From Candidatus Brocadiia bacterium (GTDB lineage: Bacteria; Planctomycetota; Brocadiia; CAIUPP01), in NCBI GenBank assembly GCA_052139675.1, contig JBKQWE010000026.1, forward strand, positions 2,703-66,702: a stretch of 64,000 bases of DNA. The letters are read 5' to 3'. Shown in pieces: positions 1,250-62,518 of the stretch. The translations under genes and the position numbers were made by a program. The notes under the pieces were generated by a model, which saw only the letters and a program-made list of their open reading frames with translations, had not been told where the DNA came from and searched no databases. Position 1 is the stretch's first letter. Every line of letters begins with the position of its first letter.

Positions 1250-2767
1250 TCACCGTTGCCAGGCCATGAGTTTCGCGAAGAGGCCCTTCCAGAACGGCGT
1301 CAGCCGCGCGCGGCTGCACGCGTCGGCGGCGCGCTTGATCCCTTCGGCCTGGGTCGGATAGGGATGGATTACGCCGCCGATGGCCCGCAGGCCGAGACCG
1401 GCGGCCATCGCCACGCTGATCTCGCTGATCATCTCGCCGGCGTGCGGGGCCACGATCGTCGCGCCGAGGATCCGGTCCGTTCCCTCGCGCACCTGGATCT
1501 TCACGAACCCTTCCGTCTCCCCGTCGAGGACCGCGCGATCCACCTCTTCAAGCGGGACGCTGAAGGTGGCGACAGGGATCCCCTGCTCCTTCGCGTCGCG
1601 CTCGTACAGGCCCACGTGAGCGATTTCCGGATCGGTGTAGGTGCACCACGGGACCGTCAGCGCGCTCAGCCGCTTGCGGCCCCAGAAGAGGGCGTTCTGG
1701 ATCACGATGCGCGCGCTGGCGTCGGCGGTGTGCGTGAACTTGTGGCTGAGGCACACGTCGCCGGCCGCGTAGATGCGCGCGTTGGCCGTCTGCAGGCGGT
1801 CGTTGACGGCCACGCCGGAGCGGGTGTCGAAGCGGACGCCGACGCGCTCCAGGCCCAGGTCCTCCACGTTCGGCGCGCGGCCCGCTCCGACGAGGATTTC
1901 GTCAACCGCGATGTCCTGCGGCCGGCCTTCGGTCACGGTATGGAGCAGCTTTCCCGCCGCCGAGCGCTCGACGCGCTGCACATCGGTATTGAGGAGCATA
2001 CGGATTCCATCGCGGCGGAAGGACTCGGCCAAAATCCGGGCCGCATCGGGGTCTTCGCGCGCCAGGAATTGGCCGTGCCGCTCGATGATCGTCACCTCAG
2101 ACCCGAGCCGCTGGAACGCCTGCGCCAACTCGCAGCCGAGCGGCCCCGCGCCGAATACCGCGAGACGCGCCGGACGCTCTGTGAGCCAAAAGACGTTCTC
2201 GTTGGTGAGGAACCCGGCCTCCACCAATCCCGGCACCGGCGGATGCACCGCGCGCGCGCCGGTGGCGATGACCGCCTTGCCGAAGCGCAGAGTCCGGCCT
2301 TCCACCTCCACGGCGTCCTGCGAGACGAAGCGCCCCTGCCCGAAGAACAGGTCCACGCCGAGGCTGCGCACCCGCTCGGCGGAATCGTGAATACTGATCC
2401 GGCTTCGAAGCCGCCGCATGCGCTCCATCACCGCCGCAAAGTCCGCCTGCGGCCGGCCGTCGCGTACTCCGTAGGCCTGCGCGTCGCGGAAGCCGGCGGC
2501 GGCGCGCGAGGAACGGATCAGGCATTTGGACGGCACGCAGCCGACGTTCAGGCAGTCGCCGCCGAGGAGATGCCGTTCGACGAGCGCCACCTTCGCCCCC
2601 AGCCCGGCGGCGCCGAGCGCGGTGACCAGGCCGGCCGTGCCCGCCCCGAGGACCACGAGGTTGTAGCGCGGCGCCGGCGCAGGATTGGCCCAGGCCGGCG
2701 GATGCACGTTGGCGACGAGCGCCTCGTTATGCGCGTCTCGCGGGAGCACCGCAACGGGTTCAGCCAT
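1250..2767 (-). CDS. FAD-dependent pyridine nucleotide-disulfide oxidoreductase (class I; mercuric reductase / dihydrolipoamide dehydrogenase-like)
   Basis: GxGxxG at LVVLGAGTAG; redox-active disulfide motif GGDCLNVGCVPSK; second NAD-binding fold; C-terminal dimerisation domain. Overlaps the next gene by 8 nt. Confidence 0.8.
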   Translation of the reverse strand: MAEPVAVLPRDAHNEALVANVHPPAWANPAPAPRYNLVVLGAGTAGLVTALGAAGLGAKVALVERHLLGGDCLNVGCVPSKCLIRSSRAAAGFRDAQAYGVRDGRPQADFAAVMERMRRLRSRISIHDSAERVRSLGVDLFFGQGRFVSQDAVEVEGRTLRFGKAVIATGARAVHPPVPGLVEAGFLTNENVFWLTERPARLAVFGAGPLGCELAQAFQRLGSEVTIIERHGQFLAREDPDAARILAESFRRDGIRMLLNTDVQRVERSAAGKLLHTVTEGRPQDIAVDEILVGAGRAPNVEDLGLERVGVRFDTRSGVAVNDRLQTANARIYAAGDVCLSHKFTHTADASARIVIQNALFWGRKRLSALTVPWCTYTDPEIAHVGLYERDAKEQGIPVATFSVPLEEVDRAVLDGETEGFVKIQVREGTDRILGATIVAPHAGEMISEISVAMAAGLGLRAIGGVIHPYPTQAEGIKRAADACSRARLTPFWKGLFAKLMAWQR

Positions 2768-3524
2768 GGCTGCCTTTCTCCTCCTTGGCGGCGGCCGGTT
2801 TGCCGCCGAGCGGATCGCCGCCCGCCGCCTGCCGCAGCGCCTTGCGCGCGATGCGCACGATGAGAACGCCGACCGCCACGGCGATGACCAGTCCGCCCCA
2901 GAACAAAATCCGCTGCGCCGGGGATTGCGGTCCGCCGCCGACCGCCGCGTCGGCCAGGCTGCGCGCCGCCGAGCCGATGTACACGTACACGACCGTGCCC
3001 GGCAGCATGCCGATCCACGAGGCGAGCGCGTAGCTGCGGAACCGCACGCGCGTCAGGCCGAAGGCGTAGTTGAGCAGGTTGAACGGGAAGACCGGGCTGA
3101 GGCGCGTGAGCAGGACGATCTTGAAGCCCTCGCGCCCGACCGCTTCGTCAATCGCGGCGAACTTCGCATTGCCGCCGATCTTCTTCGCCACCCAGCCGCG
3201 CGCCACCGTGCGCCCGACCCAGAACGCCGCGCACGCGCCGAGCGTGGCGCCGACGGAGACGGTCGCGGTCCCGAGGGCGAGCTTGAAGAGGAATCCGGCG
3301 CCGATCGTCAGGATGGACCCGGGCAGGAACAGGAGGCACGCAACGATGTAGAAGAGCACGACGACCACCGGCCCCCAGAATCCCAGGCTCTGCGTCCACG
3401 CCAGCAGGTGGAGCAGATACTCCTTCAGCGGCAGGAACTTGCCCGCCGCGACCAGGCCGGCGACCACCGCGACCACGACCGCAATGCGCCACCAGGCGCC
3501 CTTGCCGCTTTTGCTCTCGGGCAT
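2760..3524 (-). CDS. DedA/TVP38/SNARE-associated family membrane protein
   Basis: Polytopic hydrophobic protein. Glycine-rich re-entrant motif GSILTIGAGFLFK and LTRLSPVFPFNLLNYAFGLT typical of DedA. Co-oriented with the oxidoreductase. Confidence 0.75.
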   Translation of the reverse strand: MPESKSGKGAWWRIAVVVAVVAGLVAAGKFLPLKEYLLHLLAWTQSLGFWGPVVVVLFYIVACLLFLPGSILTIGAGFLFKLALGTATVSVGATLGACAAFWVGRTVARGWVAKKIGGNAKFAAIDEAVGREGFKIVLLTRLSPVFPFNLLNYAFGLTRVRFRSYALASWIGMLPGTVVYVYIGSAARSLADAAVGGGPQSPAQRILFWGGLVIAVAVGVLIVRIARKALRQAAGGDPLGGKPAAAKEEKGSHG

Positions 3525-3539
3525 GTCACCCTCGCAGCA

Positions 3540-4364
3540 TCATTTCTGTTCGTTCAGGGACCAGTCATAGTCGAGGTAGGTGATCGAATAATCCCCCGAG
3601 GACACGCGCGCCGCATCCTCTTTGCCCAGGTATCCGCTGATGAAGTGGAGCACCGCGCGCTGCACGGCGGAATGGTCGCCGTAGCCCTGGTCCACTCCGT
3701 ACTTGGCCACGAAGTCGTCGCCGAACCACTTGAAGATCGAAGAGAGGTAAACCGTGCCTCCGTCCGCGGCGATGCGGAACTTCAGCGGGTTGGACAGGAA
3801 GCGCCTGGCCTGGTCGTCCAACTGGTCGCCGAGGCGGTCGCCCGCGTACGGCTCATTGCGCAGCGGCGGGCAGCCCATGGCCGCGCAGACGAGCGCCATG
3901 TGGATGCGCGGCTCGTGGAACTCCTTGCGCAGCACCCCGTGCTCGATCCCGTCCAGCGTCATCGCCTGGCCCATCACCGAGAACTGCAAGCCGTCCCAGG
4001 CGCCGCTGATCTGCCGGATGCTGTTCTTGGGGTAACGCAGGCTGGTCAGGAACGAGGACCGGATCGGGTAGTGGGTGATGATCGCCTGCAGCGTACAGGC
4101 GTTGTACGCGTTGAGCCAGAACGCGATCTTCGCCGGCTCCGCCCAGCCGTCGTAAGCCGAACGGTTCAGCCCGGCGAGCGAGCGGACGAACGAATCGAGC
4201 TTTTCGCTGTGCGACTTGAGTTCGGCATAGTTCACCATGCCGCGATCGTTCACGTACGCCTTAAGCGCGTCGGCGTAGTCGGCATAGGAGAACGACTGGG
4301 CCTGGACGGCGCCCGAGAGCGCTGCGACGACCACGAAAGCGGCGGCTGGAATTGAACCTTTCAT
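3540..4364 (-). CDS. secreted DUF547-family protein
   Basis: N-terminal signal peptide (AALSGAVQAQS). WLNAYNACTL and CAAMGCPPL motifs characteristic of DUF547, a family commonly adjacent to the DedA plus oxidoreductase pair. GAAAGGGGG ribosome-binding site upstream. Confidence 0.55.
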   Translation of the reverse strand: MKGSIPAAAFVVVAALSGAVQAQSFSYADYADALKAYVNDRGMVNYAELKSHSEKLDSFVRSLAGLNRSAYDGWAEPAKIAFWLNAYNACTLQAIITHYPIRSSFLTSLRYPKNSIRQISGAWDGLQFSVMGQAMTLDGIEHGVLRKEFHEPRIHMALVCAAMGCPPLRNEPYAGDRLGDQLDDQARRFLSNPLKFRIAADGGTVYLSSIFKWFGDDFVAKYGVDQGYGDHSAVQRAVLHFISGYLGKEDAARVSSGDYSITYLDYDWSLNEQK

Positions 4365-4426
4365 GCCCCATCCCCCTTTCCGGCGCGTGCCGTCAGCCCC
4401 ACGCTGAGCGCACGCGCGTCCCCGAG

Positions 4427-5530
4427 TTACTCTCTGCGCCCTCCAACGGATCCGGCGTACCGCCCCCAGCGCTTCGCCGTCTCGTACATGGCCAGGACAT
4501 TTTCCAGCGGAGTGTTGTCCTGGATCGCATGCGTCGGTGCATAACAGTATCCGCCGCCGGGCATCATGATGTCAAGCGTCTCGCGGCAAGTCCGCACGAC
4601 GTCGTCCACCGTCCCGAAGGCGAGCGGCCCGGCGGTGGAAATGCACCCGTGAAAGGCCAGCCGTCCGCCGAACCGCTTCTTGAGATAAGCCGGCGCCATG
4701 TCCTTCGCCTCCGGCTGCAGGGTGTCCACGGCGCGGATGCCCATGGCGATGAAGTCCTCGTAAGCCCAACTGCTCGACCCGCACGTGTGCATCATGATGG
4801 GGACGTCGTAAGCCTTGGCCAGGTCGCAGAACGGCTGGAACCGCGGGCGGATGTGCTTGCGGAACGTGGCCATGCTGATGATCGGGCCGATCTGCGTGCC
4901 CAGATCCTCGCCCAGGAAGATGAAATCCACCGCGCCGCCGGCCTTCTCCAGGATTCGCGCGGTCACCTCGATCTGCAGTTTCATCCGGCGGTCGGCCAGC
5001 AGCAATCCGGCGGGCTCATCCGTGACGAGGTCAATCAACGTCTGCTCCATGCCGCGCAGGAACCCGTTGCCGTTGATGATGTCGCCGAAGCCGCCCGCGC
5101 CGTTGAGGCCGTACTCCCGGTACGTCTTGCACTGGGCCGGGATCGTGCTGTAATCGTAGTCGTCCGCCGTCGGCAGCGGCCACGCGGCGACGGCTTCCTC
5201 GTCGGCGCTTCGCAGCGGGAAATCGCAGTAGTCCCAGTAACTGCCGCTGTCGTGCTCGATGCAGCGGGTGTGGATTCCCCAGACCGGGTCCACGTGCCGT
5301 CCGGGCAATTCCGCATGGAGCCGAGGTCCGGCATACGCGGCGCCGACGTGCCGGAAGTCCACTCCCAGGGCGCGCCGAAGCCCTTCATCGTCGTCTGGCT
5401 TCAGGCCGAAGTGGGTCTTGAGCCGGCGATCTATGCCGGGGTTGCTGGTATAGTCAATGGGCACACGGTCGGCCTCCTGGCAGGCCAGCGCCAGGCGAAC
5501 GCGCTCCTTGGACGTCAGGGACTTGCCCAT
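4427..5530 (-). CDS. uroporphyrinogen decarboxylase (URO-D) family protein (MtaA/CmuA-like fold)
   Basis: Length and motifs (RVPIDYTSNPG, LGTQIGPIISMATFRKHIRP, MMHTCGSS) fit the URO-D / methylcobamide methyltransferase superfamily. A paralog lies at 35891..37051. Confidence 0.6.
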   Translation of the reverse strand: MGKSLTSKERVRLALACQEADRVPIDYTSNPGIDRRLKTHFGLKPDDDEGLRRALGVDFRHVGAAYAGPRLHAELPGRHVDPVWGIHTRCIEHDSGSYWDYCDFPLRSADEEAVAAWPLPTADDYDYSTIPAQCKTYREYGLNGAGGFGDIINGNGFLRGMEQTLIDLVTDEPAGLLLADRRMKLQIEVTARILEKAGGAVDFIFLGEDLGTQIGPIISMATFRKHIRPRFQPFCDLAKAYDVPIMMHTCGSSSWAYEDFIAMGIRAVDTLQPEAKDMAPAYLKKRFGGRLAFHGCISTAGPLAFGTVDDVVRTCRETLDIMMPGGGYCYAPTHAIQDNTPLENVLAMYETAKRWGRYAGSVGGRRE

Positions 5531-5590
5531 GCGTTCTCTCTTGGCTCACATGTTGCGCAGCCGTCCGTGCCGCCGCGCCCGCATTTCATT

Positions 5591-7024
5591 CTACCGCAAA
5601 CCCTGCTTGCCGCCCAGCTCCGACTGGAGCATGAGATAGTACGCCACGCTGGTCAGCTCGCCCCAGCCATCCGGGTCCTGGGTGGCCTCGAAGTATTTCT
5701 GAATCTCGACGTCATAAGGCGCCAGCGAGGCCCACATGCGCAGAGTTTGGACCTTCGTGTCCTTGTCGGTGGCGAGCGTCACCTGGGCCGCCTGCGCGCC
5801 CTTGAGCTGGACGACGATCTTGCCCTGTTTCGCTTTATCGTTCCACTGCACGCTGACCACCGTGCCGTTCAAGGCGCCGGGGCCGGCGGAGATCGGCTCT
5901 GCGGTCATCGAGTTCGGGAAGCAGGCGCTGATCTCTTTCGCCGTGCCGCTGGAAGGCAGGACCGAGATCTCCATTCCGGCCGCCGGAGCGCCGGGACTGA
6001 CTCCCGCCCAGGCGGTCTTGGCGGTGGCGATCAGGCGGGCGATGTCGGCCTTGTCGAAGACCAGGCCATGCTCGTACCCGGCGACGATGCCGAGCGTGTC
6101 GAGCTGGTAATAGCCGCTGTTGGGATGGATGAACACGCCGTGCTTGGGGCTGCCGTCGGCCTTGTAATCCCACGGACCGGCCGGCTGATTGTAGTTCCAA
6201 ATCTCGTAGGTGCCATCGCTCTTCGGCGTCATCCGGCTCTTCATCACCTTGAACCACCGCTCCGCGTGCTCCTTGTATTCGGGCTTGCCGGTCACGTCCC
6301 ACATCGCGAGCATCCAGCGGGCCACCTCGTTCGCCTTGTTGTTCGGGTGCGAGGCGCCGTGCCCGGGATTGTTCCGGGTGTCGAAATCAACCCACTTCTT
6401 GTTGGTCGGGTCCAGCCCATAGGGCATGACCACGGACATCAGCCCGCCGTCCTTGGTCTCGCGCCAGCCGCCGCGCTTCGCCCATTTCTGGTAGAGCTGC
6501 TCGGCGAGCTTGAGGTAGCTCTCGCCCTTCGCGCCGTACTTTTCCTTCAACGCAGGGTTCCTGATCATCTCGCCGGCCATGAGGACGATCGGTCGGAAGA
6601 CCATGGCGTCGCTCAGCATGCTGTCGGCGTTGTAGTCGTCCATGTGATCCACCCAGGTGCCGGACGCCCCGACGCCGGGCCATCCGAGGAAGCCGTCCGG
6701 CTCCTTGATGGCGCGCTTGATGAGGGAGTCCGACCAGTCCACCATCAAGTCCACGTACTTGGTGTTATGGGTGGCCATGTAGCCGTAGTAGAAACCCTCC
6801 ATGACCGGCGTCATCGCCCAGGCGATGTCCTCGCCCATGGCCCGGTCGCACGTGCGGTAGCCCCTGGCTTCGCCGGAGATATTCTTGTCCCAGCGCGCGA
6901 GCCATTCCTTCTGCTTCGCCGAGTCCATCTTCGTGAGCGTCATGGCCGGAGGCGCAGTCTGCGCCTGGCAGACAACCGCCGCCAGCACAAGCCCGGCGGC
7001 GCACAACCCAATCATCTTCTTCAC
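5591..7024 (-). CDS. secreted protein, uncharacterised family (copy P1 of 6; possible alpha/alpha-toroid glycoside-hydrolase/lyase-like)
   Basis: GTG start with a signal peptide (MKKMIGLCAAGLVLAAVVCQAQTA). Shares about 60-80% identity with copies P2 and P3, which are tandemly downstream. Confidence 0.7.
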   Translation of the reverse strand: MKKMIGLCAAGLVLAAVVCQAQTAPPAMTLTKMDSAKQKEWLARWDKNISGEARGYRTCDRAMGEDIAWAMTPVMEGFYYGYMATHNTKYVDLMVDWSDSLIKRAIKEPDGFLGWPGVGASGTWVDHMDDYNADSMLSDAMVFRPIVLMAGEMIRNPALKEKYGAKGESYLKLAEQLYQKWAKRGGWRETKDGGLMSVVMPYGLDPTNKKWVDFDTRNNPGHGASHPNNKANEVARWMLAMWDVTGKPEYKEHAERWFKVMKSRMTPKSDGTYEIWNYNQPAGPWDYKADGSPKHGVFIHPNSGYYQLDTLGIVAGYEHGLVFDKADIARLIATAKTAWAGVSPGAPAAGMEISVLPSSGTAKEISACFPNSMTAEPISAGPGALNGTVVSVQWNDKAKQGKIVVQLKGAQAAQVTLATDKDTKVQTLRMWASLAPYDVEIQKYFEATQDPDGWGELTSVAYYLMLQSELGGKQGLR

Positions 7025-7094
7025 GTTTTCTTCTCCTGTCGTTCAATGACCGCTCGCAGGGAAACGATCCCCGCGGCGAATTCCGCGGCAAACC

Positions 7095-8519
7095 CTACTT
7101 AGCGGCCAGTTCCGCCTGGAGCATGAGATAGTGCGGCGTCTCGCTGAGGCCGCTCCAGCCATCCGGCGCCTCGGTCGCCTCATAGTTCTTCTGAATCTCG
7201 ACGTCATAGGGGACCAGCCCGTGCCACATCCGCAGGAGCTGGACCTTCGTGTCCTTGTCGGTGGCGAGCGTCACCTGGGCCGCCTGCGCGTCCTTGGGCT
7301 GGACGACGATTTTGCCCTGTTTCGCTTTATCGTCCCACTGCACGCTGACCACCGTGCCGCTCAAGGCGTCCGGGCCGGCGGAGAGCGGTTCCGAGGTCAA
7401 CGAGTTCGGGAAGCAGGCGTTGATCGCTTTCGCCGTGCCGGCCGGCTGGACCAAAACCGCCATCCCGGTCATCGCGCTGCCGGGACTGCCGTCCATCCAA
7501 CTGGTCTTGGCGGTGGCGGCCAGGCGAGCGATGTCCGCCTGGGTGAAGACCACGCCGTGCTCGTATGCGGCGACGATGGCGCGCGTGTCGCCCCAGTAAT
7601 ACCCGCCGTTGGGATGGACGCCGATCCAGTGCTTGGGGCTGCCGTCGGGCTTGTAATCCCACGGGCCGGCCGGCTGCCAATAGTTCCAGATCTCGTAAGT
7701 GCCGTCGCTCTTGGTCTTCATCCGGCTCTTCTGCACCTTGAACCACCGCTCCGCGTGGTCCTTGTATTCCGGCTTGCCGGTCACGTCCCACATCGCCAGC
7801 ATCCAGCGGGCGACCTCGTTCGCCTTGTTGTCGGGGTGCGAGGCGCCGTGGCCGGGAGCGTTCCTCGTGTCGTAACCGATCCACTTCGTGTTGGCCTGGT
7901 CCATGCCGTAGGGCATGACCACGGAGATCAATCCGCCGTTTCCGGTCTCCCGCCAGCCGCCGCGCTTCACCCACTTCTCGTAGAGCTGCTCGGAGAGCTT
8001 GATATAGCTCTCGCCTTTCGCGCCGTACTTCTCCTTCAGCGCGGGGTTCTTGATCATCTCGCCGGCCAGCAACACGATCGGGCGGAACACCATGGCCTCG
8101 CTGAGCATGCTGTCGGCGTTCCAGTCGTCCAGGTTGTCCACCCAACTGCCGGCCGCGCCTTTCGAGGGCCAGCCGACGAAGCCGTCCGGCTCCTTCACGG
8201 CGCGCTTGATGAGCGAGTCCGCCCAGTCCACCATCATGTCCACGTACTTGGTGTCATGGGTGGCCATGTAGCCATAGCAGTAGCCGTCCATGATGGGCGT
8301 CATTCCCCAGGCGATGCCTTCGCCCATTTCGCGGTCGCACGTGCGGTAGCCCTTGGATTCGCCGGAGATCTCCTTGTCCCAGAGGGTGAGCCACTCCTTT
8401 TGCTTCGCCGCGTCCATCTTCACGAGCGTCATGGCCGGGTTCAACGCCGTCTGCGCCTGGCAGAGCGCCGCCGCGAGCACAATGCCGGCGGAGCACAGCC
8501 CGATCATCGCCTTCTTCAC
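7095..8519 (-). CDS. secreted protein, same family (copy P2)
   Basis: By homology to P1 the start is GTG at 8519 (VKKAMIGLCSAG signal peptide) with a GGAGAGG ribosome-binding site. The longer track ORF reaching 8654 would overlap P3 and is taken as a shadow extension. Confidence 0.65.
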   Translation of the reverse strand: MKKAMIGLCSAGIVLAAALCQAQTALNPAMTLVKMDAAKQKEWLTLWDKEISGESKGYRTCDREMGEGIAWGMTPIMDGYCYGYMATHDTKYVDMMVDWADSLIKRAVKEPDGFVGWPSKGAAGSWVDNLDDWNADSMLSEAMVFRPIVLLAGEMIKNPALKEKYGAKGESYIKLSEQLYEKWVKRGGWRETGNGGLISVVMPYGMDQANTKWIGYDTRNAPGHGASHPDNKANEVARWMLAMWDVTGKPEYKDHAERWFKVQKSRMKTKSDGTYEIWNYWQPAGPWDYKPDGSPKHWIGVHPNGGYYWGDTRAIVAAYEHGVVFTQADIARLAATAKTSWMDGSPGSAMTGMAVLVQPAGTAKAINACFPNSLTSEPLSAGPDALSGTVVSVQWDDKAKQGKIVVQPKDAQAAQVTLATDKDTKVQLLRMWHGLVPYDVEIQKNYEATEAPDGWSGLSETPHYLMLQAELAAK

Positions 8520-8589
8520 GTTTTCCTCTCCTGTCGTTCCATGGCCGCGCGCAAGGAAACGATCCCTGCGTCGAATCCCGCGGGAAAGC

Positions 8590-9741
8590 CTACTTGCCGG
8601 CCAGCTTCGCCTGGAGCATGAGATAGTAGGACAGGCCCAGCCCGCCCCAGCCATCCGGGTTCGCGCTTGCCTCGAAGTGCTTCTGGATCTCGACGTCGTA
8701 GGGAGCCAGCGCGGACCACAGCCGGTTTGTTTTCTTGGCGGTGGCGATCAGGCGGGCGATGTCGGCCTTGTCGAAGACCAGGCCATGCTCGTAGGCGGCG
8801 ACGATGGCCGTGGTGTCAATCTGGTAATACCCGCCGTTGGGATGGACGCCCACCCAGTGCTTGGTGCTGCCGTCCGGCTTGTAATCCCACGGGCCGGCCG
8901 GCTGATGGTAGTTCCAAATCTCGTAGGTGCCATCGTCCTTGACCGGCATCCGGCTCTTCATCAGCTTGAACCATTTCTCCGCGTGTTCCTTGTATTCCGG
9001 CTTGCCCGTCACGTCCCACATGGCGAGCATCCACATGGCGACCTCGTTGGCCTTGTTGTCGGGGTGCGAGAATCCGTGACCGGGATCGTTCCTGGTGTCA
9101 TAACCGATCCACTTCGTGCGGGTCGGGTCCAAGCCATAGGGCAGGACCACGGAGATCATCCCGCCGTCCTTGGTCTCCCGCCAGCCGCCGCGCGCCGCCC
9201 ACTTGGCGTAGAGCTGCTCGGCGAACTTGAGGTAGCTCTCGCCTTTCGCGCCGTACTTCTCCTTGAGCGCCGGGTTCTTGATCATCTCGCCGGCCATCAG
9301 GACGATCGGGCGGAACACCATCGCGTCGCTGAGCATACTGTCGGCATCGAAGGTCTTATCCAGGTTGTCCACGTCGGTGCCGGCCGCCGCGAATGAGGGC
9401 CAGCCGAAGTAGCCGTCGGGCTCCTTCACGGCCCGCTTGATCAAGTGGTCCGTCCAGTCCACGAGCATGTCCACGTACTTGGTGTTTTTCGTGGCCATGT
9501 AGCCGTAGTACAAACCGTCCACGACGCCCGTCATCTTCCACGCGATGTCCTCGCCCACGGCGCTTTCGCAGACGCGATAGCCTTTGACCTCGCCGGAGAT
9601 ATTCTTGTCCCATCGGGCGAGCCAGTCTTTTTGCTTCGCCTCGTCCATCTTCGTGAGCGTCATGGCCGGAGGCGTGGTCTGCGCCTGGCAGACAGCCGCC
9701 AGCACAAGCCCGGCGACGCACAGCCCAATCGTCTTCTTCAT
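8590..9741 (-). CDS. secreted protein, same family (copy P3; lacks the ~95-aa C-proximal insertion present in P1/P2)
   Basis: ATG at 9741 (MKKTIGLCVAG) preceded by GGAGGAGGAA. Clean in-frame junction KKTNRLWSALAPYD where P1/P2 carry an extra beta-rich segment. Confidence 0.65.
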   Translation of the reverse strand: MKKTIGLCVAGLVLAAVCQAQTTPPAMTLTKMDEAKQKDWLARWDKNISGEVKGYRVCESAVGEDIAWKMTGVVDGLYYGYMATKNTKYVDMLVDWTDHLIKRAVKEPDGYFGWPSFAAAGTDVDNLDKTFDADSMLSDAMVFRPIVLMAGEMIKNPALKEKYGAKGESYLKFAEQLYAKWAARGGWRETKDGGMISVVLPYGLDPTRTKWIGYDTRNDPGHGFSHPDNKANEVAMWMLAMWDVTGKPEYKEHAEKWFKLMKSRMPVKDDGTYEIWNYHQPAGPWDYKPDGSTKHWVGVHPNGGYYQIDTTAIVAAYEHGLVFDKADIARLIATAKKTNRLWSALAPYDVEIQKHFEASANPDGWGGLGLSYYLMLQAKLAGK

Positions 9742-9784
9742 GATTCCTCCTCCTGTGATAGAATGGCCGCTCGCGCGGCGCGTA

Positions 9785-11557
9785 TCAGAGATCGTACCCT
9801 TGAGCCTGCTTCGCGCCCAGAGTATCAACCACCTCGATGCCTTCGACCTTCACGTCCTTTCGCCCGGCCAGGTCAATCCCGCTCTCGCGCACCACTGTCT
9901 CGAAGAGGTGCAGCCGCGGATCGCCGCCGGTCTTCACCGTGATCCGTTTGGCCGCAGCGTCGTACGTGAACTCGCTCCACGGCTTCCCGTCGCGGAGCAG
10001 TTTCTTCGGTTCGGCGGAGAGCGGCGCCCACCACGTCTTGTCCTCGCGCGTCCAGCCGGCGACTTCGTCCGCGCCGCTGATCGTCACCTTCTCATCCTTC
10101 ATCGCGCGGATCGTCACGCCGTCGCTCGCCGGCCGAAGCGTCTCGCGGTACACGCCGTCGCGGAGCAGGATCGTCTCGCCCTGCTGCGCTATCGCGCACG
10201 CCTTGGAGGCCGTCGCCAGCGGCACGCCCGGATAGCCCCACGCGGGCTCATCCGCCGCCGCCGGATGGCGCGGGTCCACGTACCAGACGTTGGGCCATTC
10301 CATGGCCCCGACCGTGATGCCGCCCTTGCCCGCGCCGATGGCCGGGCTGCCCTGGCGCAGGCGGAAATCGCGCTTCTGCGGATCCACGAAGAGCGGGTCC
10401 TTGCCGTTGATGTTCGTCGCGCCGTCCAGCGCCCGGGTCTCATATGTCAGGTTGTACTCGATCAGCGGCTTGGACGGCGTAATCTTCTTATCGGTATCCA
10501 CGACGGCTCGCTCGGCGTCGCAGAGGATATTGTCGCGGATCTGCCCGTTAGTGGATTCCGCGCCGCACAGGCCGATGCACGACCAGCGCACCGTGGAGAT
10601 CGTGCAGTTCTCGATCGTCACGTCGAGCGCCTGCATAATGCACGGGCCCCAGCCTCCGCTCAGGTACTTCGGCGACCCGTTGGTGCAATAGATGTTGTGC
10701 CGGAAGGTCAGGTACCGCACGCTGCCGATGTGCGGAGCGCTTTCCACCATGCAGCCCTGGTGAAAATCGAAGCAGGTGTTGTACTCGAAGAGCAGGTCCT
10801 TCGCGATCTCGCCGTTGTCCGTGAACGTCTGGATGCAATCCACGTGGGCGGGCCCGATTTCACTCTGGCTGCTGCCGTGGTAGTAGTTGTACCGCTCCAC
10901 GCAGCCCTGGCCGAAGAACCGCGTGTAGTCGCAGTCGCCGTACGGCGGATACGTCCAGAGCCGGCACACCTCGTTATTCTCCTCGACCCAGTCGTTCCCG
11001 CCCATCATGAAGCCGAAGTCACTGTGGTAGACTTTGTTATAGGCGATCCGGTTGTGCGACACCGCGGAGAAATCCCGCATGCCGTCGGCGCCGACCTTGC
11101 CTCCGGTCCCACCGACACCGATCCCCATGTCGTGGATATAGTTGTCCAGCACCTCGCAGTAACTCCCGCCCAGCTCCACCGCCACGGCGGATTTCGGGGC
11201 CGTGATCTCGAAGCCGGCCACGCGGACGTAACTGGCCGGCACGTCGAACCCGTTCACAATGGCCGACCGCCGCGGCATGGCCTGGAACGTGATCGGCTTG
11301 CCCTTCGAGCCGCTGGTCTTGAGCTCGACCCGCTCTTCATACCGGCCCGCCATAACAAAGACGGTGTCGCCGGGCTTGACCAGGTCGGCCGCGCGCTGAA
11401 CCGTCTTGAACGGGCTCTCTTCCGCGCCGGAGTTCGTGTCGGCCGCGCCGGGCGCCGCCTGGTCCACCACGTACACGGACGCGCGCGACTCGCGCCCGAG
11501 CAGCGAGATCGCCGACAGCACAACCAGGCAGAACGGGCTCCATAGCGCAACCTTCAT
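9785..11557 (-). CDS. secreted right-handed parallel beta-helix protein (pectate-lyase-fold; two DUF1565-like N-terminal modules)
   Basis: Signal peptide. Duplicated motif YVVDQAAPGAADTNSGAEESPFKTVQRAADLVKPGDTVFVMAGRY and WYVDPRHPAAADEPAWGYPGVPLATASKACAIAQQGETILLRDGVY. Cys- and Asn-rich helix coils. 4-nt overlap with the upstream gene. Confidence 0.6.
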   Translation of the reverse strand: MKVALWSPFCLVVLSAISLLGRESRASVYVVDQAAPGAADTNSGAEESPFKTVQRAADLVKPGDTVFVMAGRYEERVELKTSGSKGKPITFQAMPRRSAIVNGFDVPASYVRVAGFEITAPKSAVAVELGGSYCEVLDNYIHDMGIGVGGTGGKVGADGMRDFSAVSHNRIAYNKVYHSDFGFMMGGNDWVEENNEVCRLWTYPPYGDCDYTRFFGQGCVERYNYYHGSSQSEIGPAHVDCIQTFTDNGEIAKDLLFEYNTCFDFHQGCMVESAPHIGSVRYLTFRHNIYCTNGSPKYLSGGWGPCIMQALDVTIENCTISTVRWSCIGLCGAESTNGQIRDNILCDAERAVVDTDKKITPSKPLIEYNLTYETRALDGATNINGKDPLFVDPQKRDFRLRQGSPAIGAGKGGITVGAMEWPNVWYVDPRHPAAADEPAWGYPGVPLATASKACAIAQQGETILLRDGVYRETLRPASDGVTIRAMKDEKVTISGADEVAGWTREDKTWWAPLSAEPKKLLRDGKPWSEFTYDAAAKRITVKTGGDPRLHLFETVVRESGIDLAGRKDVKVEGIEVVDTLGAKQAQGYDL

Positions 11558-17055: not shown

Positions 17056-19488
17056 TCAAGCGTCCCGCCGACGCCTCCGCGCCCGCATGTGCGATAAAAT
17101 CAGCAGCGCGACCGCGAGGCATCCGGCCGCGCTCACGGCCGCGCCAAAGCGGAAGCTCGCGGGCCTGTAAAGGAACCGGATTTCATGCGCGCCTTCGGGA
17201 ACCGCCACTGCGCGCATGACGTAATTCGCCTCCAGGATTTTCGCCGGGCGGCCGTCCACCGTCGCCTGCCAGCCCGGGTAGAAAAGGTCGCTCAGCACCA
17301 GCAGCGCCGGCGCGGCGGCCCGGACTTGGATGTCCACGCGCGCCGGCTCGTACCGCACGATCTCCGGCGCGGCCTCCGCCGCCGGCGGTTCGGCGATGGC
17401 GCAGCCGGGATCCTCCTCGAAGAGGGCCATTTTCCTGTAATCGAACCGCGAGAGCAGCGCCAGCACGTCCATGCTGTCGCGTCTCACGGCATAGTGATGG
17501 ACCAGCCAGGCGCGCGGCCAGGGATTGGGCATTTCGTCAATCCGGATCTGCGAATCCTGGTAGATTGTGCGGAGGCCCTCGATCGGCAGCTTCGGGCCGG
17601 AAGCGTACGCGACGATGTAGCGCAGGTCGAGCATCCGCAACGGCGCCTGGAAGCTGTAAATGGAATAGGGGCTGAGCAGCCCGCGCTTCATCTGATCGTA
17701 GAATTCCTTGCCCTGCAGCGACCAGAAGACGTCGTGGAACCGCGCCGGGGCATTCGGCTGAACGCCCTCGATGCAGGCGAGACGGTGCCTCATGCCCTCG
17801 CACGGCGGCAGCTCGAAGCAGCCGCCGCGCCAGAAGCGGAACGGTTCCGGCCTGGTCGCGAGGAACTCCAGGGCGCCCGGCGAGAGATCGTCCTCGCGCG
17901 GGTCGAAGGTCGCCAGGTATCGCTCTCCGAAACTCCAGGCGTCCATCGCCACCAGCAGCAGCAGCGCCGCGGCGATCCAGCCCGATTTAACCCGTGCCGA
18001 CCGCGCGATCCGGATCAGGGCCGCCAGCGCGCCGAGGAAGAGTCCTCCCAGCAGCACGCTCACCCCGGCGACCTCCATCGCCGCCAGCTTGAAGTCCGCC
18101 GTCGGCGTCCATCCGTGAAGATACACGCGCTCACTGGGCGCGACATTGAGCATGGCGTCCATGAATCCCATCCATGCCGCCCGGCCGAACCCGACTCCCG
18201 AACACAGCGCCCCGCCGGCGAGCATCAGCAGCATCGCCAGGCAAGCCAATATCCACATCCCGCGACCGTCAGCCCGCGCGATGCCTGGCTCCGGCTCCGC
18301 AGCCGATGCCGCGATGCCGTCCGCGCCGAGGCCCGCCAAGAGGCCAATGAAGAGACTGGCCGGACACAGCCATCGCGCCTGCGCCCGGAACAGGTCGAAG
18401 CCCGGGAGCAGCCCGAAAAACAACGCATCCCCGGTCATGGCCAGCAGCAGGCAGATCAGCGCGATGCAGCCGGGCAGGAACGCCCTTCCGCGCCTGCCGC
18501 GGAGAAGCGCGATGAACGCCAACCCGATCGCGACGACGCCGACATACGGCGACATCTCCCAGATGTTCCATCGTCCCCAGTACCGCACGCCGACGTCGTT
18601 CCCGAAAATGTCCGGCACGAGGAAGCTCATCAGCCCTTCCGGCACGAACGCGTACTGCCTGACCCAGCCGTAGCTGAGCTGGCCCCGGCGCGCGGAGGCG
18701 GAGAAGAGTTCCAGCGCCGGCATCAACTGCACGCCCGCCAGCGCCGACCCGAGCACGTAGATCAGCGCGAAGCTTCCGACGACCCGCGCCGCGCCGCGCA
18801 AGCCGAGTTCGGGCCGCTGCCACAGCCGACCGCCCAGGTACAGCACGGCGGCGAGCCCGCCGTAGAAGGCGTATTGCGGATTTCCGCCGAACCACTCCAT
18901 CGCCACTGCCGCCGCGCCGAGCGCGATCGCGAGCGGATGAGAGTCACCGCTGACGAGCATCTCCACGCAGAGCAGGACGCACGGAATCCACGGCATCATC
19001 GCCAGGAAGTCCCAATGCCCCGCGTAAACGTGCAGGATCTGCGGCGCGCCGAATACGTACGTTGCCGCGGCGACGACTGCGCCGACCCACCTCAGCCCGA
19101 ACCGCCGCGCCCAGAGATACGTGAAGAGGCCCGACAGAAACAGGTTGAGGATGATCCCCAGGTTGATCGCGAGGCACAGCGGCAGCACGGCGCAAAACCA
19201 GTTCGTCGGGTAGAACATCGCCGATTGCAGGCTGGCGACGAAGGGCATCCCGAGAAATTCGTATGGGTTCCAGAGCGGGAACCGCCCGGCGCGGACCTCG
19301 CCGAAGCCGTACGCGCGCGCGCCGTAGAACCAGTTCTGCGCATCCGAGCCGGCCAGCCCCAGGCATCGTTCGCCCGACTGCGCCAGCACGCCGGAAAAGA
19401 AGATCAGCAGGAAAATGAGGAAACCGGCCAGGACATAGCAGTCCCGGCGGTCCAGCTTAGAATAACCGCTCGCGGAAAGTGGAGGCAC
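17056..19488 (-). CDS. YfhO-family polytopic membrane protein (GT-C-like glycosyltransferase)
   Basis: About 13 predicted transmembrane segments, then a C-terminal periplasmic domain ending in DLFYPGWQATVDGRPAKILEANYVMRAVAVPEGAHEIRFLY, the YfhO hallmark. Confidence 0.65.
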   Translation of the reverse strand: MPPLSASGYSKLDRRDCYVLAGFLIFLLIFFSGVLAQSGERCLGLAGSDAQNWFYGARAYGFGEVRAGRFPLWNPYEFLGMPFVASLQSAMFYPTNWFCAVLPLCLAINLGIILNLFLSGLFTYLWARRFGLRWVGAVVAAATYVFGAPQILHVYAGHWDFLAMMPWIPCVLLCVEMLVSGDSHPLAIALGAAAVAMEWFGGNPQYAFYGGLAAVLYLGGRLWQRPELGLRGAARVVGSFALIYVLGSALAGVQLMPALELFSASARRGQLSYGWVRQYAFVPEGLMSFLVPDIFGNDVGVRYWGRWNIWEMSPYVGVVAIGLAFIALLRGRRGRAFLPGCIALICLLLAMTGDALFFGLLPGFDLFRAQARWLCPASLFIGLLAGLGADGIAASAAEPEPGIARADGRGMWILACLAMLLMLAGGALCSGVGFGRAAWMGFMDAMLNVAPSERVYLHGWTPTADFKLAAMEVAGVSVLLGGLFLGALAALIRIARSARVKSGWIAAALLLLVAMDAWSFGERYLATFDPREDDLSPGALEFLATRPEPFRFWRGGCFELPPCEGMRHRLACIEGVQPNAPARFHDVFWSLQGKEFYDQMKRGLLSPYSIYSFQAPLRMLDLRYIVAYASGPKLPIEGLRTIYQDSQIRIDEMPNPWPRAWLVHHYAVRRDSMDVLALLSRFDYRKMALFEEDPGCAIAEPPAAEAAPEIVRYEPARVDIQVRAAAPALLVLSDLFYPGWQATVDGRPAKILEANYVMRAVAVPEGAHEIRFLYRPASFRFGAAVSAAGCLAVALLILSHMRARRRRRDA

Positions 19489-21150: not shown

Positions 21151-22425
21151 TCACCGGCCGGCTTCGGAAGTTCTTCCGTAGCGCGCGACCCATTCCGGCG
21201 TGCCGGCCAGGCCGCCCCAACCGGCCGGATCATGGTTGGCTTCAAAGATCTTCCGCAGCGTCGGGTCATAAGGCGCCAGGGCGGTCCAGAGCACGCCCGG
21301 CCCATTGGCCCATCGCGGGTCGGGCTTTTCGCCGTCAATCCGCTGGAACTTTGCGCCCTTGATTTGCTGGTTCCACATGAAGTCCCGATTGGTGGCGATG
21401 AGGCGGGCGATGTCCTCTTTCGTGAAGACCAGGCCGTGCTCGTACGCCGCCACGATCCCTGCGACATCCGCCGAGTAGTATCCGCCGTTCGGGTGCACGC
21501 CCACCCAGTGCTTGAGAGAGCCATCCGCCTTGTGGTCCCACGGCCCGGCCGGATCCCAGTAGTCCCAGACGAAGTACTTGCCGTCGTCGCGGAGCTTCAT
21601 GCGGGACCTCTGCACGCGCTCCCACTTCTCGGCGCGCTCCAGGTAGATGGCCTTGTGCGTCACGTCGTGCATGGCGAGGAGCCACAGGACGATCTGGTTC
21701 TCCTTGTTATCCGGCAGGGAGATGCCGCCCTTGTTTCTCTCCTCGTATCCCTCGGTCCACTTGCCGGTCTTGGGGTCAAGCCCGACGCGCGGGGTGACGT
21801 AGAGGCCGCCTTCCTTCGTCTCGCGCCAAGCGCCGCGCGCGTCCCATTTCTCGAACGTCCGATCGGAAAGCCGAAGGTATTCCTCGGCCTTGGCGCCGTA
21901 TTTTTCCTTCAGGGCGGGCGTCTTGAGAATCTCGCCGGCCATCAGCACCAGCGGGCGAAGGAACATTTCCTCGCCCAACTGGCTGTCCGTAATGGTGTCG
22001 GCGCCTTCGATGCCGGCCTGGCTTTGCTCGCTCGCGAAGTTCTTGGGCCAGCCGATATAGCCGTCCGGCTCCTTCACGCCGCGCTTGACGACGGAGTCGC
22101 CCCAATCTATCAGCCGGTCCACCCATTCGCGGTCGCCGGTCGCCATGTAGCCGTAGTAGAAGCCGTCGAGGAACGGAGTGACAAGCCAGCCGATCTCCTC
22201 GCCCATTTCCTTGTCGCAATAGCGGTTCCGGCTGTCGCTGATGATGTTCTGCTTCCACCGCTGCATCCACTCCTTGGCGAGCGCCGGATCCATGGCGGGT
22301 CCCGCCGGAGCGGCAATTCCTGCTGCCGCGTCCTTCGTCTGGCCCTGGGCGATCGAAAAGCCGCACGGAAGAATCCACGCGAGGAGCAGCCCGCAGATCG
22401 CGCCGGAATACAGTCTACCTGACAT
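21151..22425 (-). CDS. secreted protein, same uncharacterised family (copy P4; subfamily B)
   Basis: Signal peptide MSGRLYSGAICGLLLAWILPCGFSIAQGQT. Shares WMQRWKQNI...YCD...GEEIGWLV...FYYGYMATGDREWVDRL with P5 and P6. GAAAGGG ribosome-binding site. Confidence 0.7.
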   Translation of the reverse strand: MSGRLYSGAICGLLLAWILPCGFSIAQGQTKDAAAGIAAPAGPAMDPALAKEWMQRWKQNIISDSRNRYCDKEMGEEIGWLVTPFLDGFYYGYMATGDREWVDRLIDWGDSVVKRGVKEPDGYIGWPKNFASEQSQAGIEGADTITDSQLGEEMFLRPLVLMAGEILKTPALKEKYGAKAEEYLRLSDRTFEKWDARGAWRETKEGGLYVTPRVGLDPKTGKWTEGYEERNKGGISLPDNKENQIVLWLLAMHDVTHKAIYLERAEKWERVQRSRMKLRDDGKYFVWDYWDPAGPWDHKADGSLKHWVGVHPNGGYYSADVAGIVAAYEHGLVFTKEDIARLIATNRDFMWNQQIKGAKFQRIDGEKPDPRWANGPGVLWTALAPYDPTLRKIFEANHDPAGWGGLAGTPEWVARYGRTSEAGR

Positions 22426-22495
22426 ATTGGCCCTTTCAAAAGTGCTGAAGACGGAGCAATTTACCTCGGCCTCGAATCCCGCTTAGCTCGTGACG

Positions 22496-22584
22496 CGGTG
22501 TCATTCCGAGCGGAGCGAGGAATCTCACACGCAGCGCATCGCAACGTTCTATGGTGTGAGACCTTTCGCTGCGCTCAAGGTGAC
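22496..22584 (+). repeat. ~90-nt palindromic repeat element, copy A (imperfect ~28-nt inverted arms gtcattccgagcgSagcgaggaatctca / tgagaccYttcgctgcgctcaRgg)
   Basis: Near-identical copy at 43303..43390. Inverted, expanded copy at 62519..62642. The track ORF 22498..22818 (MSFRAERGISH...) is a translation artefact of it. Confidence 0.6.
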
Positions 22585-22663
22585 TTTCATAACGTGTGTA
22601 CTGAACACTACATTACGCTCGTCTGTGAGTATCACAAGGCCGCGACCAAGTCAACCGCCGCCT

Positions 22664-23209
22664 TCACCCCGCGGCCTTTTTCTCGGCCGCCTTCGCGCGG
22701 TACTTCGCCAGCAGCACCGGCACCTGCTCGGGCGTCATGCGGCCGTGGACCTCGTTGTCCACCATCACGACGGGCGCAAGGCCGCAGGTGCCCAGGCAGC
22801 GGGCGGCTTCGAGGGTGAACATGCCGTCCTTGCTCGTCTCGCCGAAGTCCACGCCCAGTTCTGCCTTGAGGCGCGCCGCGATCTCGCTGCCGCCCTTGAC
22901 GTAGCACGCGGTGCCGAGGCATGCATTGATGATGAATTTGCCCGAGGGCCGCAGGCGGAAGAAATGATAGAAACTCGCGACACCCGTCACTTTCGCCGTC
23001 GGTATCTGCAGGAGTTGCGCGACGGCGTCCATCTGCGCGCGGCCGAGGTAGCCGAAGTGCCCCTGCACTTTGTGCAGCACGCTGATCAACTGGCTCTTCG
23101 GTTCGGGGCCGCGGAGCACCTCCTCAATGTACTTGACGATGGGCTCCGGCAGCGCAGCGCGGCTGACTTTTTCGACCTGGCGCCGGTTATCGGTCGAGCT
23201 CTTGATCAT
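22664..23209 (-). CDS. NuoE-like [2Fe-2S] thioredoxin-fold subunit of the hydrogenase (HydC/HndA-type)
   Basis: CxxxxC...CxxxC pattern (NACLGTACYVKG ... CLGTCGLAPVVMV) typical of NuoE / 24-kDa subunits. 4-nt overlap with hydA. Confidence 0.75.
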   Translation of the reverse strand: MIKSSTDNRRQVEKVSRAALPEPIVKYIEEVLRGPEPKSQLISVLHKVQGHFGYLGRAQMDAVAQLLQIPTAKVTGVASFYHFFRLRPSGKFIINACLGTACYVKGGSEIAARLKAELGVDFGETSKDGMFTLEAARCLGTCGLAPVVMVDNEVHGRMTPEQVPVLLAKYRAKAAEKKAAG

Positions 23210-37086: not shown

Positions 37087-38325
37087 TCACTGGCCGGCTC
37101 CGGGCTTTCCGCTGAAGCGGAGGACCCATTGAGGCGTCCACAGGCCGCCCCAACCGCCCGGATTAAAGTTGGCTATAAAAATCTCCCGCAGCGTCGGGTC
37201 AAAGGGCGCCAGGGCTTCCCAGAGTTCCCCGGGCTCGTCCGCCCAGCGCGGGTCGGGCCGGCCGCCGTCAATCATCTGGAACTTCGCGTTCTTGACCTGC
37301 TTGTTCCACATGAAGTCCCGGTTCGTCGCGATGAGGCGCGCGATGTCCTCCTTCGTGAAGACCAGGCCGTGCTCGTACGCCTCCGCGATCGCGCCGGTAT
37401 CAATCCCGTAGTACTCGCCGTGCGGGTGGACGCCCACCCAGTGCTTCAGAGTGCCATCCGGATTATGGTCCCACGGAACGCCCGGGTCCCAGTAGTCCCA
37501 GACGAAATACTTGCCGTCGTCGCGCAGCTTCATGCGAGACCGCATCACCTGGAACCACTTCTCGGCGCGTTCCTTGTAGACGGGCTTGTGCGTCACGTCG
37601 TACATGGCGAGCATCCACTCGGCGATGAGGTTCTCCTTGTTGTCCGGCAGGGAGTTGCCGTCCGTCATTCTTCGTTCATATCCGCCCGGCTCGGTCCACT
37701 TGCCGGTCTGAGGATCAAACCCGAAGGGCGGGACGACCCAGATGCCGCCTTCTTTCGTATCGCGCCAGGCGCCGCGCGAATCCCATTTCTCGAAGGTTCG
37801 CTCCGCAAGCCGGAGGTACTCTTCGGCCTTGGCGCCGTACTTTTCTTTCAGCGCCGGCGTCTTGAGAATTTCGCCGGCCATCAGCGCCAGCGGGCGAAGG
37901 AACATCGCATCGCCCACCTCGACGTCCGTGTAGCGCTCTTTCACGCCGGGCGGAAGGTACTCGACGACGCCGTCGTCCGCCGGCTTGGGCCAGCCGATGT
38001 AGCCGTCCGGCTCCTTCACGCCGCGCTTGATGACCGAGTCGCCCCAATCCACCAGCCGGTCCACCCACTCGCGGTCGCCGGTGGCCATGTAGCCGTAATA
38101 GAAACCGTTCAGGAACGGGCTGACCAGCCAGCCGATCTCCTCGCCCGTCGCCTGGTCGCAATAGCGGTCCCTGCTCTCGCGGAGGATGTTCTGCTTCCAG
38201 CGCTGCATCCATTCTTTGGCGAGCGCCGGATCCAGCGCCTGGCCCTGGGCGATGGAAAAGCCGCAAGGAAGAACCCACGCGAGGAGCAGTCCGCAGAGCG
38301 CGCCGCGATACAATCTGTGTGACAT
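37087..38325 (-). CDS. secreted protein, same uncharacterised family (copy P5; subfamily B)
   Basis: Start ATG 38325 (MSHRLYRGALCGLLLAWVLPCGFSIAQGQA) with a GAAAGGG ribosome-binding site. The track's longer N-terminus was rejected. Confidence 0.7.
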   Translation of the reverse strand: MSHRLYRGALCGLLLAWVLPCGFSIAQGQALDPALAKEWMQRWKQNILRESRDRYCDQATGEEIGWLVSPFLNGFYYGYMATGDREWVDRLVDWGDSVIKRGVKEPDGYIGWPKPADDGVVEYLPPGVKERYTDVEVGDAMFLRPLALMAGEILKTPALKEKYGAKAEEYLRLAERTFEKWDSRGAWRDTKEGGIWVVPPFGFDPQTGKWTEPGGYERRMTDGNSLPDNKENLIAEWMLAMYDVTHKPVYKERAEKWFQVMRSRMKLRDDGKYFVWDYWDPGVPWDHNPDGTLKHWVGVHPHGEYYGIDTGAIAEAYEHGLVFTKEDIARLIATNRDFMWNKQVKNAKFQMIDGGRPDPRWADEPGELWEALAPFDPTLREIFIANFNPGGWGGLWTPQWVLRFSGKPGAGQ

Positions 38326-38385
38326 ATCGGCCCTTTCAGAAGCGATGCAAGTTCGTTTTGTGATTACCACAAGGCTGCGGCCGAG

Positions 38386-43146: not shown

Positions 43147-43302
43147 GCGGTCTCCTCCAAGGAATCCCTGCCGGGGGCGGCGGTCGCGTCCCAAAAGCCG
43201 GTCAAACGGGCAGCATCCTACGCCTGCCCGAATCACCTGTCAAGGAATGGAAGGCCAATTTTCTCGGAGTTTGGCGTTTCACGCACAAGTTCCATAACAC
43301 GC

Positions 43303-43390
43303 GGTCATTCCGAGCGCAGCGAGGAATCTCATACGCAGCGTGCGGGCAACGGTTTGTGGTATGAGACCCTTCGCTGCGCTCAGGGCGACG
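43303..43390 (+). repeat. ~90-nt palindromic repeat element, copy B
   Basis: About 85% identical to copy A (22496..22584) over its full length. Intergenic. Confidence 0.6.
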
Positions 43391-43442
43391 CAGTGTGGGC
43401 TTGTGCGCGTTGCTTCCGGAACACGATATTCGATGCGGCGGC

Positions 43443-62437: not shown

Positions 62438-62518
62438 ACGGATGTCGCTAAGCACCCTGCATCGGTTATGAAATAGGCTCTAGTATCGTGTTCCGGAAGT
62501 AACACGCATAAGTCCAGA

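Follow-up and report, generated by a model that had tools for sequence, protein, structure and literature searches.

Palindromic repeats in a Brocadiia genome fragment probably belong to the Ssn system as gene-less pairs of GTC-tagged hairpin modules

Three similar palindromes lie between genes on a contig of an uncultured Candidatus Brocadiia bacterium (JBKQWE010000026.1), and the question they raise is what kind of element they are. We analyzed 64,000 nucleotides of this contig (hereafter the window, whose numbering is used throughout). A preliminary description had suggested either a mobile miniature element resembling repetitive extragenic palindromes (REPs) and MITEs (miniature inverted-repeat transposable elements), or a structured RNA or terminator. 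We find that the hairpin repeats are a new example of the recently described Ssn system and not a new kind of element. Each copy is probably a gene-less pair of GTC-tagged hairpin modules, of the class formed by the Neisseria NTS repeats and the Ssn-related motifs (SRMs) of other bacteria, and a non-autonomous relative of units in which two modules enclose an ssn nuclease gene.

Each palindrome consists of two inverted hairpin modules

All three palindromes were recovered where they had first been reported. The arm sequence GTCATTCCGAGCGNAGCGAGGAATCTCA, searched as a 28-nt pattern, matched twice on the plus strand without mismatches, at 22500 and 43304, where 100 shuffles predicted 0 matches, and the third copy, at 62.5 kb, carries the reverse complement of the arm. 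The cores occupy 22500–22584 (copy A, plus strand), 43304–43389 (copy B, plus strand), and 62523–62637 (copy C, minus strand). Copies A and B, first estimated to be about 85% identical, agree at 72 of 86 core positions (83.7%), and core identity is 88.2% between A and C and 90.7% between B and C when a 30-nt insertion in copy C is excluded. This insertion, the nested hairpin that had already been recognized (CCTTCGGCCGTGAGCTCAGGGCCGAACGGC, 62593–62622, minus strand), lies within the first arm. Arms of 25–28 nt flank a center of ~35 nt, in agreement with the original estimate of ~28-nt arms around a ~35-nt core.

Each core is composed of two inverted 25-nt modules of the form GTC-AYYCY-GAGCGNAGCGA-RGRRT-C, with the tags facing outward and a spacer hairpin of ~35 nt between them. 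The module has a 5-bp stem starting with an A-T pair, two G.A/A.G positions, a 2-bp GC stem, and a GNA triloop. Arm 1 reads GTC-ATTCC-GAGCGNAGCGA-GGAAT-C, and the reverse complement of arm 2 reads GTC-RCCYT-GAGCGCAGCGA-ARGGT-C; each arm is itself a small hairpin, and the two differ by transitions only. The GTC tag and the trailing C are present in all six window modules. The base before the tag is T in copy A and G in copies B and C, and is mostly T across loci. The window copies are heterodimers of an ATTCC-type and a CCCT-type module, separated by spacers of 35–36 nt with pairing ends (stem TCTCAYAC/GTRTGAGA).

In copy A, module 1 (22500–22524, plus strand) contains the GTC tag, the ATTCC/GGAAT stem, the GAGCGGAGCGA core, and the C after the palindrome, with the predicted fold .....(((((..((...))..))))).... 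The spacer (22525–22559) forms its own hairpin, TCTCACAC...GTGTGAGA, as a third helix, in which one pair is changed on both sides. Module 2 (22560–22584, minus-strand reading GTCACCTTGAGCGCAGCGAAAGGTC) has a CCTT/AAGG stem in place of the CCCT/AGGG stem of copies B and C, a compensatory double change that preserves the small hairpin and weakens the long one formed by the whole palindrome. Copy B consists of module 1 (43304–43328, plus strand), the spacer hairpin (43329–43364), and module 2 (43365–43389, minus-strand reading GTCGCCCTGAGCGCAGCGAAGGGTC). Copy C, inverted as a whole, consists of module 2 (62523–62547, plus-strand reading GTCACCCTGAGCGCAGCGAAGGGTC), the spacer hairpin (62548–62582), and module 1 (62583–62637, minus strand), whose loop is interrupted by the nested hairpin.

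Support for the two alternative folds was compared across 13 copies of the element, collected as described below. With three local hairpins (two modules and the spacer), 98.1% of cells paired and four double-sided changes were seen, a result that none of 500 shuffles reached; with a single long hairpin, 86.8% of cells paired, three positions never paired, and the arms showed no compensation. The covariation numbers are small, each compensatory change coming from one sequence, and they favor the small module hairpins.

Module pairs flank genes for Ssn-type nucleases

A candidate partner gene for these modules was found at a locus (L134) in which a gene of ~100 aa encoding a GIY-YIG protein is enclosed exactly by two perfect inverted module copies of 37 nt, with its stop codon within GGAATGAC. 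Its product shares 46% identity with the gonococcal SsnA orthologue (94 aa; Y6, Y17, and E64) over 94% of the length of the product, with Y17 and E64 in place; the gonococcal protein is encoded among 7 NTS. NCBIfam contained no specific family for the L134 protein. Roughly half of the best 120 homologues of the L134 protein end in ...DSSLRSE, a translated module, a count that is biased by the presence of this tail in the query; others carry the module in other frames. Three homologues picked for absence of the tail (L157, L158/L159, and L160/L161) were all flanked on both sides, at no more than ~250 nt, by module doublets GTCATYCYGARCGNAGYGARGRATC. A search of viral contigs with the L134 protein gave two loci only, and a viral-contig homologue (L148, 55% identical) was likewise flanked on both sides by module pairs, so that all five ssn homologue loci examined carry modules on both sides within about 250 nt. 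A regular-expression search for GIY-YIG open reading frames (ORFs) over 120 module-carrying loci matched L134 only, in keeping with a system in which enzyme genes are few and repeats many. Many public small GIY-YIG (Ssn-like) proteins (among P0001–P0120) are annotated with C-terminal tails, such as ...DSSLRSE, ...DPSLRSG, ...CHSERSEES, and ...IPRCARND, that are translated modules and may or may not be part of the real protein.

The system in Neisseria provides the closest comparison. NTS has the sequence CGTCATTCCCGCGMAVGCGGGAATCYRG, an extension of the older dRS3 repeat, and SsnA is a 94-aa single-domain GIY-YIG nuclease (cd10448) that binds and cuts NTS as single-stranded DNA (ssDNA) only and in forward orientation only, RNA and double-stranded DNA being no substrates (Chenal et al., Nat Commun 2025; PMC11893778). 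The GTC 5' of the palindrome is needed for cutting and the C after it for binding, the cut falls a few nucleotides 5' of GTC, and Ssn homologues across bacteria are flanked by SRMs (PMC11893778). GTCATTCC...GGAATC is common to NTS and the window modules, which keep both determinants, with GTC directly 5' of the semi-palindrome ATTCC...GGAAT and C after it; modules flanking the nuclease gene on both sides and intergenic copies in the hundreds are further common features. By contrast, the core here is GAGCGNAGCGA, with two G.A positions, a 2-bp stem, and a GNA loop, rather than CGCG-MAV-GCGG, and the window copies are hetero-pairs inside a longer palindrome with no ssn gene nearby.

The modules also resemble the superfamily of CGTC-tagged REPs, which includes the Neisseria dRS3 repeat (CGTC-1) and Rickettsia RPE-4/6, in which dimers and heterodimers with structured spacers are common, and for which no dedicated transposase was known (Di Nocera et al. 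2013; PMC3733652). The tag of the superfamily is an unpaired CGTC, often TGTC, or CCTC, and in the window GTC is invariant and preceded by T in copy A and by G in copies B and C. Shared features are a tagged hairpin whose stem starts with A-T pairs and which ends in a short tail, a prevalence of inverted dimers, often heterodimers, with 20–100-bp spacers that have complementary ends, as in the window copies, and a mostly intergenic location between co-directional or convergent genes. The four CGTC families, however, have 8–9 continuous base pairs, loops of 4–5 nt, and a 3-nt CCA-like tail, whereas the modules here have 5 bp, two non-Watson-Crick positions, and 2 bp, with a 3-nt GNA loop and a CTC, CTG, or CTA tail, and they range over many more phyla than the five listed in 2013.

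The module is widespread in bacterial and viral contigs

To follow the module beyond the window, we searched with the exact 25-mer of arm 1 and found it in 21 viral contigs and in at least 120 genome contigs, representing more than 12 phyla among the matches listed. The listed phyla include Acidobacteriota, Chloroflexota, Planctomycetota, Gemmatimonadota, Nitrospirota, Verrucomicrobiota, Bacteroidota, Firmicutes, and Proteobacteria, and matches also came from bacteria of the candidate phyla radiation and from a Nanoarchaeota metagenome-assembled genome. Singlet modules and inverted doublets with outward tags both occur at the genome loci (138 singles and 39 doublets under a strict definition). 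A perfect 5-bp stem is present in 169 of 204 cores from the 120 genome loci; the stems covary (ATTCC/GGAAT, ATCCC/GGGAT, ATTCT/AGAAT, ATCCT/AGGAT, ACCCT/AGGGT, and ATTTC/GAAAT) while GTC and the trailing C stay fixed. Among 81 modules outside the selection imposed by the search seed, 37 have a perfect stem, compared with 4.0 expected, in ten stem variants, and GTC precedes 51 and C follows 58 of them. The inner G3-C9 pair covaries to A-T.

All-against-all clustering of ORFs from the 120 module-carrying genome loci gave no ORF family present in more than 10 of them, and a full-text literature search with the module sequence, as DNA or RNA, returned no paper. At several Acidobacteriota loci (e.g., L044, L047, L099, and L126) the same module pair lies inside a different outer palindrome, GCTGCGGAAAAA...TTTTTCCGCAGC; since these bacteria attach another outer palindrome to the same module, the outer palindrome is lineage-specific and the module the constant part. 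At another locus (L135, about 5362–5400) a singlet module stands directly upstream of a RecR-like ORF, with its GAGGAA ~10 nt from the TTG start, so that the module may sometimes supply a Shine-Dalgarno-like sequence.

A composite unit with defined ends occupies unrelated sites

The originally proposed size of ~90 nt holds for the cores and is too small for copies B and C, in which the similarity reaches 37–43 nt beyond the core on either side, giving units of ~165 and ~195 nt with defined ends. Copy B in full (43267–43432, plus strand) includes outer imperfect inverted arms, and copy C in full (62480–62674, minus strand) ends in CTAGTGCGGCGTTTC...GGAACACGATACTAG. The outer arms of copy A have diverged, and its whole unit spans about 22460–22617. 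A subfamily-specific pattern identified seven loci in Joint Genome Institute metagenomes, one of which, L152, also holds a second copy. The flanks of these copies are all different and their ends common, with conservation beginning and ending sharply at (C)TAGTGTGGCGTTTC...GGAACACGATACTA(G). Together with the window copies and the orthologous copies in two related contigs (L026 and L162), this makes a total of 13 copies in at least 10 unrelated flanking contexts. The two composite copies in L152 (599–760 and 1906–2090), 1.3 kb apart, bracket a single gene of 377 aa, which recalls the NTS-gene-NTS arrangement of Neisseria; the module-2 stem of the second copy is ATGCT/AGCAT.

Copy A supplies a comparison of a filled with an empty site. 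It had been proposed to be inserted into the 5' region of a paralog, and it indeed forms a 158-nt insert between a promoter-like block (TTGACT...GTGATA, TTGACTYGGYCGCRGCCTTGTG..., 22630–22654, minus strand) and the start of gene 21151–22425. This block had been described as shared between two paralogs, the second evidently being 37090–38385. A search allowing up to 3 mismatches gave no second copy of it; a diverged homologue, TTGACTCGGCCGCAGCCTTGTGGTAATCAC, lies ~35 nt upstream of the ATG of 37090–38385. The distance from block to ATG is about 200 nt for 21151–22425 versus about 35 nt for 37090–38385, and the extra 158 nt (22460–22617) coincide with the extent of the full element that the other copies define. 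Of the two natures first suggested, the dispersed mobile-type repeat is thus borne out by the copy number, the contexts, the defined ends, and the paralog sites, and the structured RNA or terminator is not.

The element changes locally between related strains

Copy A has counterparts at the same site in three related contigs. The counterpart in one of these, L026, contains the 30-nt insert of copy C (about 10695–10726), and between the window and L026 the copy shows 17 substitutions and a 30-nt indel in 158 nt, compared with 2 differences in 213 aligned positions of the flanks; the element is therefore a hotspot of local divergence or gene conversion between strains. Copy B is kept in a relative (L162, CysN 95% identical), and there the corresponding position holds a 42-nt insert that the window copy lacks (L162 about 18449–18576). 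This insert comprises the 30-nt insert and a 12-nt tip and holds a degenerate third module, CCCTTCGACAGGCTCAGGG. Unrelated loci carry the identical 30-mer as well, and the nested hairpin is also found in L154 and L156. The nested hairpin is thus polymorphic at orthologous sites, with 0 versus 30 nt in copy A (L026) and 0 versus 42 nt in copy B (L162).

These data are consistent with gene conversion between copies or with recurrent cutting and repair of the element, and do not prove transposition. The preliminary description would have taken the repeat for a conserved regulatory hairpin if its three copies were the only ones in the genome and lay within conserved untranslated regions of relatives; the A and B sites are kept in related strains, and the three copies are not the only ones. 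The strain polymorphisms provide material for testing Ssn-driven local turnover, and establish no new mechanism by themselves.

How the module pairs may work, and competing explanations

If the module pairs belong with the ssn-flanking repeats, a cognate Ssn nuclease would be encoded elsewhere in the genome. Whenever the region becomes single-stranded, during replication or repair or as incoming DNA, each strand would present one forward module to this nuclease. Cutting by Ssn, combined with recombination or gene conversion, could then spread the copies or keep them homogeneous, and effects on neighboring genes, such as the separation of gene 21151–22425 from its promoter-like block, would be by-products.

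Several observations weigh against this assignment. Neither the window nor the related and module-carrying sequences L025–L027, L150–L156, and L162, which cover only a small fraction of the genome, yielded an ssn homologue. The published SRM search pattern, HGTCWYN(0-2)YYVSBRHN(0-5)WNVSBRGN(0-2)RNCYNB (PMC11893778), matches none of the window modules, and its single match in the window (45484) is at chance level. The pattern also misses the modules beside ssn homologues in L134, L148, L157, L158, and L160, and it matches the 7 gonococcal NTS; it fails here because the GAGCGNAGCGA core has two G.A positions. With nearest-neighbor DNA parameters, a lone module reaches only −2.7 to −3.7 kcal/mol, no better than shuffles, and the long hairpin is far more stable, at about −25 kcal/mol (z about −4), so that thermodynamics points to the long hairpin where covariation supports the small ones. 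The minimum free energy fold of the lone module is the expected hairpin, though weak. The module tip GCGNAGC is exactly the d(GCGNAGC) mini-hairpin motif, a resemblance only; this DNA motif was reportedly found to be unusually stable by Hirao and colleagues in the 1990s, with a sheared G.A closing pair, and the parameters used contain no bonus for it. Copies A and B are retained at orthologous sites, with no sign of recent movement, and no target-site duplication was seen at the unit ends. Finally, the unit reaches 35–45 nt past each module, so that cuts a few nucleotides 5' of GTC would fall inside it, and a simple scheme of cutting at both modules leaves the copying of the whole unit unexplained.

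In a more far-reaching reading, the composite element would be a non-autonomous transposon moved by an Ssn-type GIY-YIG nuclease, with module-ssn-module units like that of L134 as its autonomous form. We regard this as rather unlikely. If it were true, Ssn would be a new class of prokaryotic ssDNA transposase or homing enzyme, and the 30- and 42-nt loop inserts would mark hairpin loops as preferred insertion sites.

The unit ends could instead belong to a conventional MITE of ~165–195 nt, with outer ends CTAGTGTGGCGTTTC...GAAACRCGATACTAG recognized by an unrelated transposase and the modules as cargo. The imperfect inverted termini, ~35–45 nt outside the modules and common to copies in unrelated contexts, are what such an element would show. 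We nevertheless consider a MITE improbable: target-site duplications are lacking, none of the fetched loci contained a transposase gene with such ends, outer arms lacking the module core did not occur in the sequences examined, and other lineages, such as the Acidobacteriota with GCTGCGGAAAAA...TTTTTCCGCAGC, pair different outer palindromes with the same module.

A function exercised mainly as RNA, whether as a terminator, a processing or stabilizing hairpin, or a 5'-untranslated-region (UTR) regulator, is about equally improbable. All three window copies are intergenic, as had been noted earlier; each lies between co-directional genes, and they have the same orientation relative to transcription. 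As RNA they fold strongly (−39 to −62 kcal/mol, z down to −4.9), and copy A stands between a promoter-like block and a start codon. Yet Rfam gave no match, either for the whole window at the gathering threshold or for copy A at E values up to 10; a terminator scan found a T-run after none of the copies; and nine contexts divide 6:3 in their orientation relative to transcription. Downstream of copy B there is a promoter-like site, so that this copy need not be in a UTR. The small module hairpins backed by covariation also occur as singlets and in either orientation, and SsnA does not bind RNA (PMC11893778). The structured RNA or terminator envisaged in the preliminary description accordingly finds no support.

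REPINs, inverted REP pairs mobilized in trans by a REP-associated tyrosine transposase (RAYT; an IS200/IS605-like Y1 enzyme), look similar, with ssDNA hairpin modules, spaced inverted doublets as the replicating unit, singlets as remnants, no target-site duplication, and one enzyme gene flanked by repeats (Bertels and Rainey 2011, PMC3116915; Nunvar et al. 2010, PMC2817692), and 3 of 168 fetched loci encode RayT-like proteins, but this origin is very improbable, as the tag is GTC and not the GTAG/GTGG of REPs linked to the HUH Y1 transposase (PMC3733652), the window has no homologue of Escherichia coli RayT by tblastn, and the three RayT-like genes are unflanked and at least 900 nt from any module, compared with flanking on both sides at all five ssn loci. 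A RAYT or IS200-like partner, which had been suggested as a search target, was not found associated with the GTC modules by tblastn with E. coli RayT over all sequence collected, and the partner family is GIY-YIG Ssn instead. Integron attC sites end in RYYYAAC...GTTRRRY and CRISPR repeats form an array; both were rejected for the window copies, which end in GTC...GAC and lie 20 kb apart without an array.

Placing the window copies with the Ssn system has consequences for annotation. An unannotated repeat from an uncultured and poorly represented lineage, whose best named CysN match is a Brocadiia metagenome-assembled genome at 58% identity, now has a place among Ssn/SRM repeats. The module variant GTCATTCCGAGCGNAGCGAGGAATC and its relatives, spread over more than 12 phyla among the matches listed, escape the published SRM pattern, and surveys that use this pattern therefore probably undercount the repeats. 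The modules also explain spurious ORFs that contain ...SFRAERGIS... or ...CHSERSEES..., as well as the ...DSSLRSE tails on GIY-YIG proteins.

Neighboring genes and other features of the window

One such spurious ORF lies in copy A. The ORF at 22498–22818, which had been called a translation artifact of the repeat, starts in module 1, runs on antisense to the NuoE-like gene at 22664–23209, and fails a filter for coding-like GC content by codon position. Copy A is bordered by this NuoE-like gene, which stops at 22664, and by a gene for a paralogous secreted protein, which starts at 22425. On the two sides of copy B, another paralog stops at 43443 and a TIM-barrel gene starts at about 43146. Copy C has an ABC ATPase gene with its stop at 62180 on one side and a plus-strand gene starting near 62796 on the other.

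The paralogs adjoining copies A and B belong to a set of six (5594–7042, 7098–8552, 8593–9774, 21151–22425, 37090–38385, and 43443–44744), three in tandem and three scattered, which encode proteins of ~420–480 aa with a signal-peptide-like N-terminus and are 60–90% identical at the DNA level. No Pfam family is recorded for the orthologue called in L025/L026.

A separate imperfect palindrome of ~92 nt (62348–62440), ~40 nt away from the copy C unit end at 62480, is made up of CGTAAT/GATTACG repeats (TCGTAATCGTAATCGTAATC...GATTACGATTAGGATTACGATTACGA); no match to it was found in any locus fetched. Between two sulfatase-like genes, at 46798–47087, there are four tandem 66-nt (22-codon) repeats that are 70–74% identical to a reference copy. 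In the related contig L025, a DndB-family gene, an unknown gene, and a D12-type methyltransferase gene (2493–5895) lie between a sensor kinase gene and a NuoF-like gene and are absent from L026, forming a small strain-specific, defense-like insertion that adjoins the hydrogenase-like operon.

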